Assembly: GCA_012026655.1 (NCBI GenBank)
Contig: JAAILG010000133.1
Coordinates: 1 to 64,000 of the forward strand
Origin: Hydrolagus affinis
Lineage: Eukaryota
Length of the DNA stretch: 64,000 nt
Direction: 5' to 3'
Shown here: piece by piece, positions 17,783 through 44,820 of the stretch
How the letters are laid out: each line of letters begins with the position of its first letter
Numbering within the stretch: position 1 is the first letter of the stretch
Made by a program: the position numbers and the translations under genes
Notes under the pieces: model-generated
The model's input: only the letters and a program-made list of their open reading frames with translations
Told to the model about the DNA's origin: nothing
Database searches by the model: none

Positions 17783-18110
17783 ACTCAATTGGTAGCACTG
17801 AGTCACAAGATAGTGGATTCTAGGCCTACGTCAGCTCACAGTCCAGGCTGACTCACCAATGTAGTTCGCGCAGGAATGTTGCATGGTCAGAAGTGCAATC
17901 AGTTGGACGAGAGGTTAAACTGAGATCCCATCAGCCTATTCAGGTGGACTGGAAAGATTCTATGTTCTATCTGGGACATTGCGGTACGCAAGATGTCTGC
18001 TGCATTCACCAACACATACAGTCAATACACTTTACAATGAAATGCTTTGAGATGCCTCAATGATGCGATAAAGTGCTGCATCAAATGCAAGGATTATTGA
18101 TTATTATTAT
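17783..18110 (+). mobile_element. Deu-domain SINE (SacSINE1/AmnSINE1-related), decayed
   Basis: Head GGTAGCACTGAGTCACAAGATAGTGGATTC, core GGACGAGAGGTTAAACTGAG..CAGGTGGAC..AAAGAT, and the shared SINE tail. Confidence 0.8.
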
Positions 18111-18554
18111 AAGAGTGACATTTTGACATACCTGTATAAAGTAGCCCTGACTCCCACCTTTAGTAAAAGACTTATGTTGACTTTCCTTATGCATTTTTGC
18201 TTGATGTGCATTTCCATTTTCTTATTCCCTCCAGTGCCATCAATCACAGGCTGTCCTCAGGAGTTTGTGCTGACTCTCCAAGGGCATGCTAGTCTCCAAG
18301 ATTATCTGTATGCTGAAGACACAGTGACCGCTGCTTGTGTTTCACAAGGAGACAGTTCTTCTTAGTCACATCTACCCTTGACTGTACTCTGTACTGTGGC
18401 ACAGAGAATTCAGGCATATGAATCACAAAAGAAGGAGAGTTTTTGTTTTTGTTAAATTACTTTCATGGGTTTCACCACAGGATTATGGAGTGTGTGTCAT
18501 GGCAAAAGTCTCCGACTGTTTGGATCTTGATCTCAAACTTCAGTGCGAGGGAAA

Positions 18555-18707
18555 GTTTCCATCTCTTTCATGGAACACCTTCCTCTTCGACCGTCCCTAC
18601 GGTCACCTCCCCCTTCCCCCCAACTCAGCTTCGTACTCCAACACTGTCAAGTGCTCTGAGATGTTCCAGTGTATGAGGGATGCTATGAAAATGCAAATTG
18701 TTGTTGA
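18555..18707 (+). mobile_element. L2 LINE 3' end
   Basis: CTTCCTCTTCGACCGTCCCTACGGTCACC, then a C-rich UTR and a tail ending AAATGCAAATTGTTGTTG. Confidence 0.75.
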
Positions 18708-18829
18708 TCTGAGGGAATTTTTAAAAGGTTGATTAATTTTTTTTTAAACAAAAGCTCTTTAGATGCTTCCTCTCATCTGCCCTAATTTGATTGATTAAAA
18801 ATTTGTTCTTAATTTCGAAGTCTCTTTTC

Positions 18830-18949
18830 CCGCCAAAGAAATCAGCTTCCAAATCCTGGCTGAAGATCAGAATTGTCTCTGTTCTGCACTACATTGACTT
18901 TCAATCCAAATTGGTATGGTAGGCTCAGATTGGGTGGAATTTCAGGCCT
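18830..18949 (-). mobile_element. Old palindromic MITE family, partial
   Basis: Terminal GGTGGAATTTCAGGCCT. Internal AAAGAAATCAGCTTCCAAATC is shared with 27446-27467. Confidence 0.65.
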
Positions 18950-19864
18950 CTGTTTTATGATGTTTGGGTCCGCTTCCCATAAACTTGTTTGTTTTCAGAG
19001 AACGATTGCTGAACCAGAAAGAAAAAAATGGGATATTTTAAGATTATCACAATACCATGATTTATCTCAGTAAATTCCTCTCGCCCGGAATAAACAATGG
19101 CCGTTTTTGGTATATACAGAAACAGACAGCTGTGAATGAGTTACAAAACAGTTACACAATAGAGTACCTCTGACGCAGTGATAAATCACAGTTGCGTACT
19201 GTGGTTGGAGTGGTTTACAATGTAATCTGGTTTCAGACATTTGTGAAACGGCTTTTAAACTCTTGCTGCAGCTATTCATTACTTCAAATGATACCTGCCA
19301 CAACACAAACACAACACAAACACAACACAAAGCTTTTTTGCTCTCAGGGAAAGACCATTTTTTAAAAATTAATGCTCACTTTACTGGTATTCCTCTCGCT
19401 GCTTTTGGAAGTCTACGGAATTGATTTTTCCTGCTTTCTGTGTTGCCAGCAAGAGGAATGATTTCTGGTGGAATGTGGCATGTGACTGCAGTCTGTGCCT
19501 CACATTGCCCACTATGCAATGGAGCAATGCCTCAGCGCAGTTCGCTACACACTGAATTCTCGCCCATTCATACCCTGCTCAATGGGACGATGGAAGCATC
19601 CATGGGCTTTGACCAATTCCCCACAAAATGCATCTGTTATAAAATTATTTTTATTAAAATGACATGCACCCATTGATACATATTTATATGTACAATAGTC
19701 CATGATATAGTTAAACAATATCCATTTATGAAACAACTGTTCTGGATTTAAAGTTGGCTGTGACTGAAATTTACGCCACATGCGCTATGAGCTGTCAGCT
19801 ATCAGTCACCCCTCACTGCTGATTATCTCCAGTACCTTCATATTGGAAGAATGGAAGAACCCCT

Positions 19865-37243: not shown

Positions 37244-38766
37244 CTAGAGGTCAATTGAAGATTAGAATCGATACTACTGTAATGATATAAAACAATAAAC
37301 CCCTTGTGTGCCCTTTAGAAGAGTGAAGACAGGGAGTAACTGAGAAAGGCAGCCAAGAAAAAGCTGTGTGTTACTCCTCTGAACCACCTACATTCATATG
37401 TTTCAGCTCTCCCAAGGGATGAAAGCATTTGCCACTGGGAACCAGCAAAGTGCCATTTTGCAGCTCTATCTGAGGCTGAGGTGAGTGAAATCACACCGAG
37501 AGAGAATTCAAGCCATTGAACCGGAATATTCAGTCTCCCATTGTCCAGAAGATTACCGGCATAATGCACAATGATCATCGTATGATATCGAGTGAAATAT
37601 GCTGACTTTCTTTAGGCCTCTCTGTGCTTGTTATTGCAGCCACAGAACAAAACTGGGTTGTGTTTGCTCACAGGAAGACAGCACAGTTTTAATGCTAAGA
37701 CACTACTGTACTTATTTGTGATCAAAGAGCGTTAGAGGCTTTGACATTCTCGCCCTAGTGGCCCGAGTTGTGTTTCTCACTATTGTATCAGTCAATAGCA
37801 GGAAGCAAAACAGAAGATGCAATATTGTTTGCAAATTATTTCTATGGAAGAAATACAGGGTGGGAGACAGGATGCAAGCAATGGAAAGACTGCTCTGCCT
37901 TGGGCCTTTGAGTTTTGACATGTCATATGTTACTAGATCAGTGATCGGTGTACTTTCTGCACAATTTAACTGATTAATGTTTCAGGACCTGCTTGCACTG
38001 GGAGTGCTCTTCCAGAGGTAGAGAGAATTGTTAATAAGAGAATTGTTGTTTACAACATGCACTCAGGGCTCTGGTGAGCAAGGACTGTCAGCAGGGTGGA
38101 CACGGGTGGACGTGGGACAAAGAAAGAACTTGTTCATTTTGCTCAGGTAGGATACAGTTGGCTTAAACTGGCCTGGCTGACTGACGGCAGAGACTGACTG
38201 ACAGACTGAGTGCAGAGACTGCTCAGTGGCTGGGCTTGGGATTGCTTTTGCGGTTATTCCATAAGGAAATGTCAGTATGTCCTCAGACTCTTCCCACACA
38301 CTGGTGTCAGTTGGCCTGCTTGTCTCAGTCACACCCCTCTGCTTTCACTGTAACTAGTTTTGTTTGTCTCTTTGAGATTGGTTGGACCTCTATATCTTTT
38401 GCTGGCTTTACAAGCTGTCATTGTGTTCCTGCAATTTCCCTGTGAATACACTGTGCCTGACATCTCACAGTACATAGTAACCTAACCAGGTCACTCTGCA
38501 CTAACAAAGTCAGCCATTTGGCAATTTATGTTACATCTGACAGACTGTGTGTGAGTGAAACCTTTGCCCCACTAGTGAGAAGGAGTGACTTGTTTGGATA
38601 TGAAATGGAAAGATTTGCTCTTCAGATAAACATTTCTTATGGAGTTGTTATTTTTATAATGATAATAATCAATCCTTACTTACATTTGATACCGTGTTTC
38701 AGGATATAAAAATATCTCAATGTTCTGAACATCTTGCCTCCCCGCAAAGATGTGTTTCCTTTAGTC

Positions 38767-38966
38767 CAGTGGTTTCCAAATTTTGAATAGCGGCGTCCCT
38801 CCCTAACTCACAATGTTTCCATTGCGCCCCCACCCCCTCCTTCGCACTCGGCTCTGCCTCAGCTACACACGCACTCGGGGGCTCAAGACTCTAAAGCTCT
38901 GCGCCCCCCCAGCCAATGGTACGCGCGCCCCCAAAGGAGGCGCGCCCCACAGTTTAAAAATCACTG
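38767..38966. mobile_element. hAT (Charlie-like) non-autonomous MITE, 200 bp
   Basis: TIRs are CAGTGGTTTCCAAA and TTTAAAAATCACTG, with subterminal GGCGCGCCCCACAGTTT. The 8-bp flanks CTTTAGTC and CCTTAGTA match at 6/8. Confidence 0.85.
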
Positions 38967-40175
38967 CCTTAGTAGGAGGGAAACAGAGTCAACCACCATT
39001 ATCTTAAAACAAAGAGAAAAATCGCCTCCCTGTCGGGTTGTATCTGGTGATTCTCAGGCCTTTTATTCGTATGGAATCAGGAACGGACCTTCAGGATTAT
39101 TATAGGCAATGAAGTGCTACATTGGTGGGAACAGCAGGAGCTGCTAAACTGATTCTTAGAATAATGTCTGCAATTATATTAATATGATTTAACACTGTAC
39201 AATAAAGAGGCTCATTTGTGGCTCCAAGACATTGGCCAGCAGGCTTGAGTTATGAACTGTAATGAAGAAAGTGGGATGTTAGTTTAGAATTAAAGGGAGA
39301 ATGATAAAATAATCACCATATACGCGCCCGGCTTGCTGTAAAGAGGTCTGTTTCCAGGGGCAAGTGACTGTGCAGTGCAGCTAATCCTGCTTCCTGTGCC
39401 TTGCTTTAAACACAAAGCACTTGCAGTTTATCAAGCCTGTAACGTCAGAATCTCTGAAAGCACTTCTTGGTAATTACCATTGGGCGCAGTAACTGTACAT
39501 TTTGTAGGCAGATGTGACAGCCACCTTCTGCCTGCAAACAACCAAGGACAGAGGGTGGGGGAGTGGTGTCACGCTGATGGAGAGAGTGAGAGCCATTTTG
39601 CTTTGCTGCCTTGAAACTAGTTGTTTTGCTGCTCTGTTGATCTAGTTACCCTGGTTGCCTTTTCTCCTGTTGCCTGCTCCATTAATCCTTTATTAATGAC
39701 CCATAGCCAATAACACAAGGCTTCAGAAGTGAAATCATGTTCCTAAAGGGCATTTGTATCTCACAGGGGGAATTTAAAATTATCTTAACGTTCAGAAGAG
39801 ACTAATACCTCATAAACGCTGAGATTTGCAATGTGTTTCTAATGTCCCGATGGTGGTAAATGCAGCCCAGCCACTAAGAGCAAAGTAGAACTGTTTCTTC
39901 AGAGGTGCCATCTCCCACCTCCTGACTTCCACCCACTGATTCCAACAGTGATCTCTGATCTCAGTGCTTTCCTAATGCCCTCAGTGACCAGCTCAACAAA
40001 TCAGATAGTGTGTGTGTCCAGGGCTCAGTGTGCCTGGGACTTGTGCTGATTTTTTTTTCTGTGGAGAAAGAGTTGCTGGTGACCAAGTCCAGAGTTTCAG
40101 TTAGTCACACCAATGCCAAGCAATTCTCTGACATTGCCCTCCCTCCCTCTCCACCACCATCTCATTCATGCATCA

Positions 40176-40360
40176 AAAACAGAAGTTGCTGGGGAAACTC
40201 AGCAGGTCAGGCAGCATCTATGGAGAAAGGAAAATTAGTCAATGTTTCGGGTCTACAACCCTTCCTCAGAACGGGTCGTTTCGGGTTGTAGACCCGAAAT
40301 GTTGACTCATTTTCCATCTGTTTTTGTTTCAGATTCCCAGCATATGTAGTATTTTGTGTT
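40176..40360. mobile_element. Penelope-like element remnant (inverted pLTR pair) with 14-bp TSD
   Basis: TCATTCATGCATCA is duplicated at 40162-40175 and 40361-40374. The internal inverted repeat is GTCAATGTTTCGGGTCTACAACCC / GGGTTGTAGACCCGAAATGTTGAC. Confidence 0.85.
40238..40272 (-). ncRNA. Minimal type I hammerhead ribozyme-like motif (probably decayed)
   Basis: The minus strand reads GUU-CUGAGGA-A-GGGU(UGUAG)ACCC-GAAA-CAUU-GAC. Core boxes, helix II and a short helix I are present, but the helix III palindrome ACGU is mutated to ACAU. Confidence 0.55.
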
Positions 40361-40667
40361 TCATTCATGCATCAGATCAGTTAGCCATGCCCTTCTGACC
40401 ATGATATCCTCTATTTATTTTCATTAGAAATGAACTGAGTGTGGTTGAGACACAGTGAGTTAATGCTCTTTGGCTGACCTTTGCACCACCACCTTCATGG
40501 GTACAGGTCCTTGTTGCTGAAGTGAGGCATGTTCCTTAAATGTGCTACCACAGTGACATCTACAGGCCATGATTGGAATTGCAGCACCATATGCTGGGTT
40601 TATCCATAAATTCGCCCAGGACATTGATTGGGAATAATATCCTTAATAATACAGTACTACTGCCAAT

Positions 40668-41048
40668 AACAATCATTCCTGCATTTGGTACAGTGCCTCA
40701 TCATGTCGTTGAGATATCTCAAAAGTACTTCACAAAGATATGCTGTAAAGTGCAGTGACTATATTTTGTGGGCAAAACGTGGCAACCAGTTTGCACACAG
40801 CAATATCCCACAAACAGTCCTGGAGTTAGTGACCAATTATATTAGGGGAATTGATTGGCCAACAGGAGAGAGAAACTCCCTTCACTTTTCAAATAATGCC
40901 ATGGTATCTGTAATATCCACCTGATCAGACAGAACCTACATTCAGCGCCTCATTTGAAGGACAGCAAATCCCGACATTGGGCTTGAACCCATAACCTTCT
41001 AACTTCTGACTTAGAGATGAGAGTGCTACCACAGAGTTAGACTGACAC
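40668..41048 (-). mobile_element. Deu-domain SINE, near full-length
   Basis: Runs from a tail through GTGGCAACCAGTTTGCACACAGCAATATCCCACAAACAG, AACTCCC..TCAAATAATGCCATGG, CTCATTTGAAGGACAGCA and GGGCTTGAACCCATAACCTTCT to GAGAGTGCTACCAC. Confidence 0.85.
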
Positions 41049-41098
41049 ACAGCCGCTTAGCAATATTGTAGTTTGCTTAAACTTTAGACATGCAGGAT

Positions 41099-41165
41099 GT
41101 GAAGTCCTGTAGCTCAATCGTTAGAGCAATCACTTTACAAGCAAGAGACCTGGGTTCGACCCGGA
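41099..41165 (+). mobile_element. Isolated tRNA-like SINE head
   Basis: GTGAAGTCCTGTAGCTCAATCGTTAGAGC..AGACCTGGGTTCGACCCGG has A and B boxes but no SINE body downstream. Confidence 0.8.
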
Positions 41166-41540
41166 CGACAAGCAGCCAGACTACTTTCTTAAGATAAGCA
41201 AACTCAGAGGTCAGAGTGTCTTACACAGCAGCGGGATAGCAATCAAATGTACTTTGCTTTAGATTGTAGGCTGTTAGTTGGACATTATTATGCACAAATT
41301 GGCTTCCACACTCACCGACACAGTGATTTTGTGACGTGTTTTGAGAAAGTTGCTGTCAGTTGCTGCGACTCTCAGCTCTTTGGTGGCAGAGAGCAGGCAC
41401 CTATTTACCATGTGGGAGATTTCTATGGTATTCAACATTAAAGTGTAGGATTGTTCTTCCTTCTGATTTTCCACTGGCCGGACAGACTTCTCTTCCAATG
41501 GATGGATGGGATGGGAGCCCACGTTCTTTCAGCTCCAACA

Positions 41541-41776
41541 AAAATGCAAAATACTGCAGATACTGGAACTCTGAAACAAAAACACAAGTTGCTAGGAACA
41601 CTCAGCGGGTCAGGCAGCATCTATGGAGAGAGGAAAAGTGAGTAAAGTTTGGGGTCTATGTCCCTTCGTCAGATTGGACCCGAAAATCATGGACCCGAAA
41701 CGTTGACTCACTTTTCCTTTCTCCATAGATGCTGCCTGACCTGCTGAGTGTTCCCAGCCATTTCTGTTTTTGTTTC
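41541..41776. mobile_element. Penelope-like element remnant, ~85-bp inverted arms
   Basis: Arms at 41573-41656 and 41692-41776 differ at about 9 positions by eye. The minus strand has UCUGACGAAGGG..ACCC, and the plus arm has ACCCGAAACGTTGAC. Confidence 0.85.
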
Positions 41777-42236
41777 TTCCGACCCCATGTCACCTGCCCT
41801 GTATCATGATTCTGTCTGTAATTCAATCCACAAAAATCATCTCTTATTGAAAGCTCCAAACCGTCAATCATGCCCTTTGTGCATTGAGAGTTTCAGCCTT
41901 GGGCTGAACTTGCAGTGATGCGTTTAATGATCTCATTTATATGAAGGAGGATTAGCTGGTAGAAATGTAATCTTCAGAATATAGAGTCCAGAGTCTACAG
42001 TTTGTGCAAATTTAATTGTTAATTAATCTGATTCTGATCAGACGCTTATTTTTTTTAGAAAAGCTAATAGCTCCCTGATTGTGTGATGAGTGGGGCCAGC
42101 TGTTAGATCAGACTACAGGGTTAGGTTGCTATCCCTCAGGTTTCTCAATAACACTCAGAAGAAAAGACAGATTGTACTGGAGCATGTACTGTATAACTAA
42201 AGGCTAGTGAGCAGCAAAGTGAAACTGGCTGACTCA

Positions 42237-42338
42237 GACAAAAACAGAAATGGCTGGGAACACTCATCGGGTCAGGCAGCATCTATGGAGAGAGGAAAAG
42301 TGAGTTAAAGTTTGCGGATCCACAACCTTTCACCGGAG
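42237..42338 (-). mobile_element. Penelope-like element remnant, single arm
   Basis: AAAAACAGAAATGGCTGGGAACACTCATCGGGTCAGGCAGCATCTATGGAGAGAGGAAAAGTGAG matches the arms at 41573 and 40176. Its hammerhead region is degenerate. Confidence 0.85.
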
Positions 42339-42395
42339 CTTTGTTCCCCCTTTCATTGTGCAGCTCCTATCATTACTTACTGTCCTCTTGTTTCC

Positions 42396-42526
42396 TTCTC
42401 TCTCTCCCCCCATCTCTCTCCTCTATCCTGGTCGCGCTCTCACTGCCCATCTCTCTCTCTCCTATCCCGCTCCCCCTCACACACACTCTCCTCTCATTCT
42501 TCCACCCTCTCTCACTCCCCCTCTTT
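42396..42526. repeat. CT-rich low-complexity tract
   Basis: A pyrimidine-rich imperfect (CT)n tract abutting the SINE tail. Confidence 0.8.
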
Positions 42527-42527
42527 C

Positions 42528-42807
42528 ATAATAATAATCTTAATAATAATCTTTGCATTTAATATAGCACTTTTCACATCTTCTAGACGTCTCAAAGCGC
42601 TTCACAGAATATACTGTAAAGAGAATTGACTGTATATTTGTGGGAGAAACACAGCAGCCAATTGCGCACAGGAATGTTCCACAAATAATTTATTATCAGA
42701 CGTGTGGAGTAAAGAAAGTTGTTCAAGGTTTCAAACCTGCCGGGAATCGAACCCAGGTTTTTCGCTTGCGAGGCAAGTACTCTAACCACTGAGCTACAGG
42801 ACTCCAC
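42528..42807 (-). mobile_element. tRNA-derived SINE with intact Pol III A/B boxes
   Basis: The minus strand reads GTGGAGTCCTGTAGCTCAGTGGTTAGAGTACTTGCCTCGCAAGCGAAAAACCTGGGTTCGATTCCCGGCAGG. There is an internal deletion in the body and a (TTA)n tail. Confidence 0.95.
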
Positions 42808-43484
42808 ACTCTTGCTCTCTTCATACGCTCTCTCCCTTTGCCGCTGTCTCAATCCTGATCTTTTTGCCTCAGACTCTTCAGTAAGTTTCTCTGGTTTAAT
42901 GTCTCAAAATACAAGCTATTAATTGCTTGGGTAGCTAGTTATCTTACTCAGTGCTACACATGAAGGCGGTGGCGGGGGTGGTTTCTGCAGCATTAAAGAT
43001 CAATTAATAGGCAACAATGGGACTTGTGTACTGTTACAAGCCTGAGGAGTGCCTGGAAAGCTGAGAGACTTAACCTTTAGTCTGATCCGTGAGACATTTG
43101 GTTTTCCTTTAAATAAGCACAATGTGTGTTAAGCATATTCATTTATCCTCTCGCAGCACTGACTGCTGGAAGTATTTGAAAGTGGAGACAATTGTGAGCA
43201 ATTTCAATCCACTAGCAAGGATTGAGGAAATCAATTTGCACCATTCACACCGCGCACTGGCGTTTCAGGCGGCTGTGAATGTGGAGCAAATTGGGATTTA
43301 CAGCTGTAGTGTAAATGGAGTTGCGTTGCTTTTAAACAGCATAGCCTCTGACTGCAGGCATATCTATATTAACCCTACACTTCATGTCACTGCGTAGTTA
43401 AAGGGGCAGCGTCACTGTGTTATTCAAGGGATAGTCTTCCTATATTGATAACACTGTTGTTAAAGGGATAGAGTCATCATTCAT

Positions 43485-43650
43485 TTCTTCTCCACCACCT
43501 CTCGTATCAGCTCCGCCTTCATGGCTCTGCCGTTGCCTGGCTTCGTTCTTCCCTTTCCTTTGTCCCCAATTTGTATCCTCAAACGGCTCCTCCTCCAGCC
43601 CTTGCACTGTCACATATGGTGTTCCCCAGGGCTCTGTCCTCGGTCCTCTC
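43485..43650 (+). mobile_element. L2 LINE RT-domain fragment
   Basis: It encodes SSSSPCTVTYGVPQGSVLGPL (non-LTR RT motif GVPQGS.LGP) at ~43587-43650. Confidence 0.9.
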
Positions 43651-43653
43651 TAA

Positions 43654-43812
43654 TACGGCAGAAGCTGCTTTAATCGGACGTCAGTTAACCTCAACTTCCA
43701 GGTAAATTGGACAAAACAGCCGGCCCTGATTCATTTGAATTGCTACCCATTTATACATGCCAGTTAATTTGTACAACAAGCCCGTTAATCCGGACAGAAT
43801 CCCACACTGGTC
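43654..43812. mobile_element. Possible Tigger/pogo-like DNA transposon end
   Basis: TA followed by CGGCAGAAGCTGCTTTAATCGGAC, with a subterminal repeat CCCGTTAATCCGGAC. The second end was not found. Confidence 0.35.
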
Positions 43813-44615
43813 ATTGCTGAATGTACTCAGTTGCACTTTCTGTGTCTCACTCACGCAGCTACATTCAGCAACCAGCATTTGCCTGCCCTCCCTGCCCTCC
43901 ATCCCTCTTGAGTCCAACCTCCAACAGCTCAGGTTCAAATCCTGCACAGTCCATCGCTTGGCATGAAAAATGTGTATCTGTATAAATGTAATTTGCTGTT
44001 GCTGTTATTATTAGAGAAGCCTCACTGTTGCTAGAGCTATGCCCCTAATCATGCAAAACCCTTTGGAAAATATGCTCCAGTAAATCTTAAAAACTGCAAT
44101 GCCTCTAAACTGCCATGTCTCCTTTCCTGACGTATATGAGGAGAATATTGCACAGTATAAAGGTTTAATTTGTATTATATGGAAACTACATGCAGCTTTA
44201 TGAAAAGGCTGAAGTATTTTAACAGGGCTTGTTAAATATATTTTCTTGTTTGAAACTTTGAGATGCAGTCTAGACATACCATTTTAAAAAGAATACAAGC
44301 TCATTAATGCTTCACCAAATAGACCCAGAGGCAGCTGCTCACGTGTTTACAATGATCATTTCAAGATGTGTTTCTTGTTTCATGACCTGCTGATATGCAG
44401 CCTGTTTAAATGGGACGTTAGTCACTACACAAGCAGGTAAAATTACATTTTATGCATTTCAGATATTGAAAAATGTTGCCAGTACTTACAAAGTGCTCAC
44501 TTCAAACTCCAAATTTCGATTGACCCCAGTAAAACCCTGGGGTGGCATTTACAGCCATAACTTTAGCGTTTATTATCAATGCGAAAATATACGTGTTTCT
44601 GCTGTATGTGTAATT

Positions 44616-44820
44616 GGGGTGTGTGTGTGTGTGGTGTTTGGGCAGTGTTTGGGCAGTGTGTGTGTGTGTTTGGGTTGTGTGTGCATTTGGGCAGTGTGTG
44701 TTTGCGGTGTGTGTGTGTTTGGGGTGTGTATGCTTGGGCAGTGTGTGTGTGTGCGTTTGGGCAGTGTGTGTGTGTTTGGGCAGTGTGTGTGTTTGGGGTG
44801 TGTGTGTTCGGGCTGTGTGT
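44616..44820. repeat. Compound (TG)n / TTTGGGCAG minisatellite
   Basis: About 10 units of TTTGGG(CAG/G/TT)(TG)n. This explains the overlapping His/Thr- and Val/Cys-rich ORFs. Confidence 0.95.

Follow-up and report, generated by a model that had tools for sequence, protein, structure and literature searches.

What are three short hammerhead-bearing elements, lying within 2.2 kb of one another in the genome of Hydrolagus affinis: a mobile unit with ribozymes of its own, or the debris of a larger element? They lie in the first 64,000 nt of contig JAAILG010000133.1 (hereafter the window), which is animal-like, rich in repeats and ~42% GC and contains no gene-sized open frame. The arms of the three insertions, E1 (40176-40360), E2 (41539-41776) and E3 (42238-42339), are 65-93% similar to one another, a relatedness far above chance. 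A BLAST search of E1-E3 against the whole window returns only E1-E3, and a natural family copy mapped onto the 64 kb finds the same three groups and no further copy. Both searches agree with the initial annotation, which had described three related elements of 100-240 bp within 2.2 kb and none elsewhere; the bounds shift by 1-2 nt. E1-E3 are fragments of the hammerhead-bearing pseudo-long terminal repeat (pLTR) of a very abundant Neptune-type Penelope-like element (PLE). In our reading, to which we assign a probability of about 0.8, they are separate old insertions of this end repeat, likely run-off complementary DNAs (cDNAs) of an uncleaved messenger RNA (mRNA) leader, and are predicted to be inert today.

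A very abundant Penelope-like family

A 20-mer of the arm, searched with at most two mismatches through 1.11 Gb of genome, has 23,783 copies (control, 0), and the family is estimated at ~18,000-19,000 insertions. Walking upstream from the longer copies led to a GIY-YIG frame. Of 20 loci, a set that includes the query's own, 17 have the repeat 3' of this frame and in the same orientation, and the other three reach the contig end; among 20 further loci, 19 contain the repeat. In some copies the repeat and its tail continue into the N-terminus of the open reading frame (ORF). The longer copies match two Pfam domains above the cut-off, RVT_1 at 30.5 bits and GIY-YIG at 25.3 bits; broken fragments gave no Pfam match beyond one sub-threshold GIY-YIG. 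One copy of ~3.6 kb (L232) holds a leader remnant, reverse transcriptase (RT), endonuclease and 3' repeat, with the pLTR at both ends. Every ORF seen is broken, and no complete intact ORF occurs among the fetched loci. The Penelope origin proposed in the initial annotation is borne out by the ORF linkage, the Pfam matches and L232, which is also the RT/GIY-YIG partner that a genome-wide search with the arm had been expected to find.

Translations of L181-L200 contain a CX4CxxC linker, followed by a CxxC that lies between the GIY box and the YIG box and, further downstream, by two histidines, the CxxC and histidines together making up the CCHH motif. The Neptune clade is recognized by a CX2-5CxxC linker before the endonuclease and by a CCHH motif (PMC8557442), and by these criteria the linker and motif point to a Neptune-type endonuclease-bearing (EN+) PLE. 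With the Neptune-clade EN+ elements (Craig et al. 2021, PMC8557442; Arkhipova et al. 2013, PMC3846280) the family shares an RT followed by a C-terminal GIY-YIG domain, the CX2-5CxxC linker and CCHH motif, a pLTR, an inverted 5'-truncated copy, a tail of 30-40 bp at one end, solo pLTRs and target-site duplications of ~8-10 bp or more. It differs from them in that the whole insertion is often just the leader, present once or twice.

The family ribozyme has a helix II of 5 bp, a helix I of 3 bp and a predicted GUU cut site. Its exact intact core occurs 312 times genome-wide (control, 0), and a CG in the middle of helix III is found in 57 of 92 tallied cores, so that the earlier assignment to minimal type I hammerheads with a loop-less ACGU helix III is supported for the family. 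The minimal hammerheads in the pLTRs of metazoan PLEs (Cervera and De la Pena 2014, PMC4209133) share with it the CUGANGA and GAAA boxes, an additional base ahead of helix II, the G10.1-C11.1 pair and a palindromic 15.2-16.2 helix without loop 3. They are likewise linked to PLE ORFs and occur mostly as single dispersed motifs or close opposite-strand pairs. Those of schistosomes differ in having a helix II of 7-8 bp and a helix I of 4-5 bp, compared with 5 and 3 bp here. Six loci (L245, L246, L252, L254, L265 and L267) apparently represent an older subfamily with another helix II loop and with AAC rather than GAC as the 3' strand of helix I, pairing being kept.

Ends of the family copies

Arms are numbered from C3 of the CUGA box (+1). 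Among 108 arms, 75 reach -1, and 56 of these begin at -6 to -1; most short units have their start 3-5 nt upstream of the CUGA box. No arm (0/108) begins at +29/+30, the predicted cut. The cut was considered as a source of 5' ends and rejected, as the interval +27 to +32 holds seven arms, a rate equal to that over +1 to +26. The 19 arms that extend past the start site end at positions spread across the next 190 nt. Three independent copies with leader and ORF begin at -3, -4 and -6; of the remaining copies, two are partial tandems and all others are truncated. Of the 19 arms with a start at -4, 9 are preceded by a G (p 0.011 in one of three tests), and a cap-derived extra G is suggestive only. 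We also rejected a 3' splice site (CAG) behind the fixed start: the starts include its G and often its A, the upstream sequences are unrelated and the ORF junctions lack a GT donor.

These ends bear on whether the stubs are simply 5'-truncated copies begun in the 3' repeat, with a pile-up caused by RT stalling or by microhomology at the junction. Truncation, inversion and tails are standard in such elements (PMC8557442), short microhomologies do occur at the junctions, and 19 of the 108 arms run into the 3' untranslated region and the ORF. We nevertheless consider this explanation unlikely, because 75% of the arms reaching -1 end within 6 nt while the other 19 scatter over 190 nt, copies that run into the ORF N-terminus share the same start, and the stop falls outside the sole stable helix.

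At 6 independent loci of 17, ORF sequence up to a variable point joins a unit that starts at -4 to -8, across a gap of 0-7 nt and with no GT donor at the junction. Chimeras of this kind, in which the ORF N-terminus, mostly with leader in front, is joined to a short unit at -4 to -8, were seen at L275, L277, L278/L281, L283, L284, L285 and L291. Judged from their sequences, they look like template jumps after run-off.

The 3' ends are bimodal, at ~+100 and ~+135, and the 35 nt between them constitute the tail. The inverted set comprises 61 insertions in 125 loci; 53 could be scored at both 3' ends and eight were set aside for an arm that ended early. Exactly one arm is tailed in 51 of the 53 (p 1.6e-13 against 0.5). 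The 78 solo units include 30 tailed and 44 tail-less examples. Target-site duplications, often of 10-19 bp, flank 30 of the 61 inverted insertions versus 3 of 197 controls.

A biochemical counterpart is available for the Poseidon element PAc of Anolis carolinensis (Frangieh et al. 2024, PMC11167929), where in vitro two internal start sites bound the tail, both target strands are extended and uncleaved RNA serves as template. PAc resembles the Hydrolagus family in having the ribozyme at the pLTR-ORF junction and, on the pathway proposed below, start sites that bound the tail ~100 nt downstream and extension of both target strands on uncleaved RNA; no PAc read ends at the cut site. It differs in belonging to the Penelope/Poseidon clade and in starting its ORF at stem II, whereas the Hydrolagus family has a Neptune linker. 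The fixed starts and the one-tail rule, taken with these in vitro results, suggest that the stubs probably arose as run-off copies of the leader, either singly or in pairs. Arkhipova et al. (PMC3846280) describe head-to-head palindromes as products of an antisense template that primes itself; the fillers found here, like the one-tail rule, fit two separate primings on sense RNA.

The proposed pathway is as follows. The mRNA would start immediately upstream of the ribozyme at CCCAGT, which we take to be a match to the initiator consensus. The element protein would nick the target and begin reverse transcription inside the RNA, at the two sites that bound the tail. A leader-primed cDNA would run off the RNA 5' end after 105-140 nt and leave a solo stub such as E3. 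Where both target strands prime, presumably one per site, two cDNAs would be joined head to head with filler, as in E1 and E2, the ribozyme being carried along uncut. A cDNA that reaches the RNA 5' end may also jump back onto element RNA. We place it slightly above even odds that this scheme accounts for most family copies, that is, run-off leader cDNAs from paired start sites, one per strand, with occasional jumps back onto the element RNA.

The initial annotation had called the elements retrozyme-like non-autonomous derivatives, and this part of it was not supported. A search by exact patterns, in which the spacer could be at most 60 nt and longer tandem units thus fall out of range, gave one head-to-tail match and 145 head-to-head pairs. 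On reading, the single head-to-tail match proved to be an inverted insertion with filler, which leaves no true tandem in that range. The stubs bear the subfamily markers of ORF-linked copies and are therefore best read, from these shared variants, as copies that the autonomous element produced and that were dead on arrival. Animal non-LTR retrozymes (PMC7229834; bioRxiv 10.64898/2026.07.22.740005) are similarly short, non-coding, pLTR-related and dependent on PLE proteins, and carry a type I hammerhead. They differ in forming head-to-tail tandems, in their canonical ribozymes and in their circular RNA; the Hydrolagus units are solo or head to head, have minimal ribozymes and take their boundary from the start of the leader, not from the cut site.

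A self-propagating short unit, akin to a retrozyme or a short interspersed element (SINE), with its own internal promoter and mobilized in trans by the Penelope protein, would explain why the ends are fixed and why short units outnumber long ones. Moreover, the Penelope element of D. virilis has an internal promoter (PMC2377424), animal retrozymes have been argued to derive from pLTRs (bioRxiv 10.64898/2026.07.22.740005), and family RNA was found in both read orientations in one sample. It is nonetheless a decidedly improbable explanation. Beyond the missing tandems, a cleave-and-circularize cycle predicts 5' ends at the cut, which none of the 108 arms shows, and both stub subfamilies have ORF-linked counterparts. 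The 400 nt behind 124 tails contain no shared body beyond common host repeats, and a tail-less or head-to-head stub either lacks the downstream start site or has it buried in a hairpin.

The three insertions and their ribozyme cores

E1 is a head-to-head pair framed by a 14-bp target-site duplication, an addition to the earlier description, whose left copy (40162-40175, plus strand) is identical to the right one (40361-40374, plus strand). The left arm (40176-40272, minus strand) is a tail-less leader unit of subfamily B that runs from -3 to ~+95, with C3 at 40269. The fetched arms closest to it are mostly ORF-linked copies, for example L199, L189, L192 and L283. A 10-nt filler that resembles a piece of the ribozyme region (40273-40282) leads to the right arm (40283-40360, plus strand), which in the arm alignment starts at helix II without the CUGA box, has an internal deletion of ~45 nt and is tailed.

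E2 is likewise a head-to-head pair, and the inverted layout given in the initial annotation is confirmed for both. Its left arm (41539-41673, minus strand) is a tailed leader unit of ~-1 to +135 with C3 at 41672. The junction filler (41674-41686) briefly repeats the helix II-GAAA stretch, and the right arm (41687-41776, plus strand; ~+12 to +101) lacks the CUGA box and the tail but shows only 1 difference from the family majority over 73 positions. The predicted fold of E2 is a long hairpin (-150.8 kcal/mol, z -18). E3 (42238-42339, minus strand) is a solo tail-less leader unit of -3 to ~+98. E1 and E2 thus have one tail each and E3 none; a target-site duplication is not clear at E2, and none was seen at E3. 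We note that two pLTR stretches, ~+30 to +53 and +87 to +103 (41705-41728 and 41763-41776 in the window), resemble 3' splice acceptors, with a pyrimidine tract followed by AG; the first has a branch-point-like motif and the second ends at the tail start.

The minus-strand arm of E1, read from 40272 to 40176 as GUU CUGAGGA A GGGUU-GUA-GACCC GAAA CA UU GAC, is the sole match to the CUGANGA..GAAA pattern among the five local arms. It keeps every invariant core base, and its single defect is ACGU>ACAU at 40243, a CpG decay. The CUGA box is missing from both plus-strand arms (E1 right and E2 right). The E2 left arm combines G12>C at 41651 (GAAA>CAAA) with ACGU>ACUU, is mismatched in helix II and has lost 1 nt, and E3 has a core of CCGGUGA together with ACGU>ACUU; both are predicted to be dead. 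The lesions listed previously, at 40243, near 41651 and in a degenerate E3 core, were all read in the sequence as claimed. Dimer cleavage has been described for minimal hammerheads (PMC6765202). The change in the E1 left arm strikes the helix III palindrome needed by such a dimer, and its helix III is predicted to be unstable, with duplex energies of -1.7 kcal/mol for ACGU, +0.9 kcal/mol for the mixed pair and +3.4 kcal/mol for the ACAU homodimer. Folded as monomers, the cores have z-scores short of significance; the folding model does not score the catalytic core.

The Rfam hammerhead check suggested earlier was negative locally. A covariance scan of 38000-44500 at E<=10 returned 10 matches, none to a hammerhead family; its microRNA matches fall far under the gathering scores and reflect the inverted arms only. 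Minimal hammerheads of this sort were first detected with a relaxed descriptor (PMC4209133).

Decay was tallied over 72 arms that span the whole core. CpG positions are altered in 193 of 701 cases, including G8 (21/71) and G12 (15/70), and positions elsewhere in 4-7%. The core bases are kept in 26 of the 72 arms, and core plus palindrome in 12. The copies decay neutrally, catalytic bases included, which upholds the fossil status proposed for the elements; E1-E3 are predicted from their sequences to be inert today.

The cluster, its surroundings and what the family means

To judge the closeness of E1-E3 we used an 80-locus sample, the first 80 distinct places among 100 listed 20-mer matches, chosen by the 20-mer alone. 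It contains 6 neighboring insertions against 6.5 expected, and general clustering was rejected. One of the six, L125, may belong to the same insertion as its neighbor. Given three copies in 64 kb, such closeness has a chance of p ~0.003, yet a whole genome should contain ~10-12 triples that span no more than 2.1 kb; L047 is another. By subfamily markers E1 belongs to B, with markers also seen in ORF-linked copies, and E2 and E3 to A. Because there is no general clustering and E1 differs in subfamily from E2 and E3, the cluster looks not like a unit but like three insertions that fell within 2.2 kb mostly by chance.

The insertions themselves are old. In a sequencing run whose flanks diverge by ~2%, contigs cross from unique DNA into all three elements, and the insertions therefore predate that divergence. 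No empty site was seen in related runs, where contigs break in repeats. In two poly(A) single-cell RNA runs of one sample, depth on the unique flanks is 0-8 in one run and ~0 in the other; the hundreds of reads on the arms come from other family copies. The same runs show no pile-up of read ends at the arms, in a library type unsuited to detecting cleavage.

A single selected or co-operating unit, such as dimerizing ribozyme halves or a regulatory hairpin in a host transcript, would draw on the closeness of the three copies (p ~0.003 within the window), the long hairpin predicted for E2, the rare variants common to the E2 left arm and E3, and the low RNA depth on unique flanks in one of the two runs. 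With ~10-12 such triples expected per genome, we regard this as the most improbable of the explanations weighed here. The catalytic core is kept in one arm only, its helix III is predicted to be unstable, and its same-strand neighbors are predicted to be dead. In addition, none of the 135 open frames scanned, out of 142 of at least 62 aa at 24-58 kb, has a Pfam domain over the cut-off.

Several observations weigh against our reading of E1-E3 and of the family. As 33 of the 108 arms begin within the ribozyme and another 19 reach beyond the start site, copies that start in the 3' repeat and are truncated in the ordinary way must occur too. The transcription start is placed by DNA ends and not by a capped 5' end, and there is no excess of G before arms that start at -3 or -5. 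Non-CpG changes in the core (24/643) are slightly rarer than those downstream (56/968 and 119/1698); an alignment-end bias could explain the lower rate, with weak selection as the alternative. Neighbors seemed commoner in earlier, differently selected loci, which included the triple L047, and the 80-locus sample, being exact 20-mer matches on the longest contigs, is biased toward subfamily A and younger copies. Finally, a pair of variants that the whole genome shows in just 54 arms is common to E3 and the left arm of E2, as is a third change that is missing in 28 other such loci read; given these rare variants, the two are not fully independent.

The shared tract covers ~45 nt (+22 to +67) and is absent from the right arm of E2. 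Its likeliest source would be local gene conversion, since E3 and the E2 left arm lie on the same strand, 660 bp apart. Some of the 54 arms with the variant pair belong to the older subfamily.

The surroundings include other repeats. Interleaved with E1-E3 are tRNA-like heads at 41104-41170 (plus strand) and 42732-42803 (minus strand), which score 25.1 and 54.1 bits against Rfam tRNA, with related bodies near 40738-40900 and 42530-42700. They look like very high-copy tRNA-derived SINEs, and reads cover them more deeply than the Penelope arms. A degenerate GT-rich tandem array with units of 15-17 bp lies at 44593-44820. The rest of the contig (64001-140750; L237, L239) has three further family insertions, two of them inverted pairs, which makes six in 141 kb. 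Elsewhere, the same insertion and flank recur at L128/L129 (contig C46) and at L278/L280/L281/L293, as segmental duplicates or assembly repeats.

Much of this picture is already known from the accessible literature, namely the minimal hammerheads of pLTRs (PMC4209133), inverted and solo pLTRs with tails (PMC8557442, PMC3846280) and internal promoters (PMC2377424), and E1-E3 are ordinary fossil stubs of a known class. The fixed 5' end of the stubs found in the Hydrolagus family is not described in the accessible portions of PMC4209133. Nor did we find a fixed leader start in print, in a search that left subscription journals and Repbase mostly uncovered; it may be visible in the supplementary genomic-end figures of PMC11167929.

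Three dead stubs among ~18,000-19,000 insertions matter little, and the statistics of the family ends are more informative than the locus. These statistics touch on an open question, the integration of Penelope-like elements and the role of their hammerhead. They lend genomic support to the two-site start on uncleaved RNA reported in vitro (PMC11167929), argue against a cleave-and-circularize model for the Hydrolagus family and predict a transcription start. If the proposed pathway is true, a transcription start will have been mapped from DNA alone, and the inverted pLTRs, the one-sided tail and the downstream pseudo-LTR would be explained without ribozyme cleavage or a circular intermediate.

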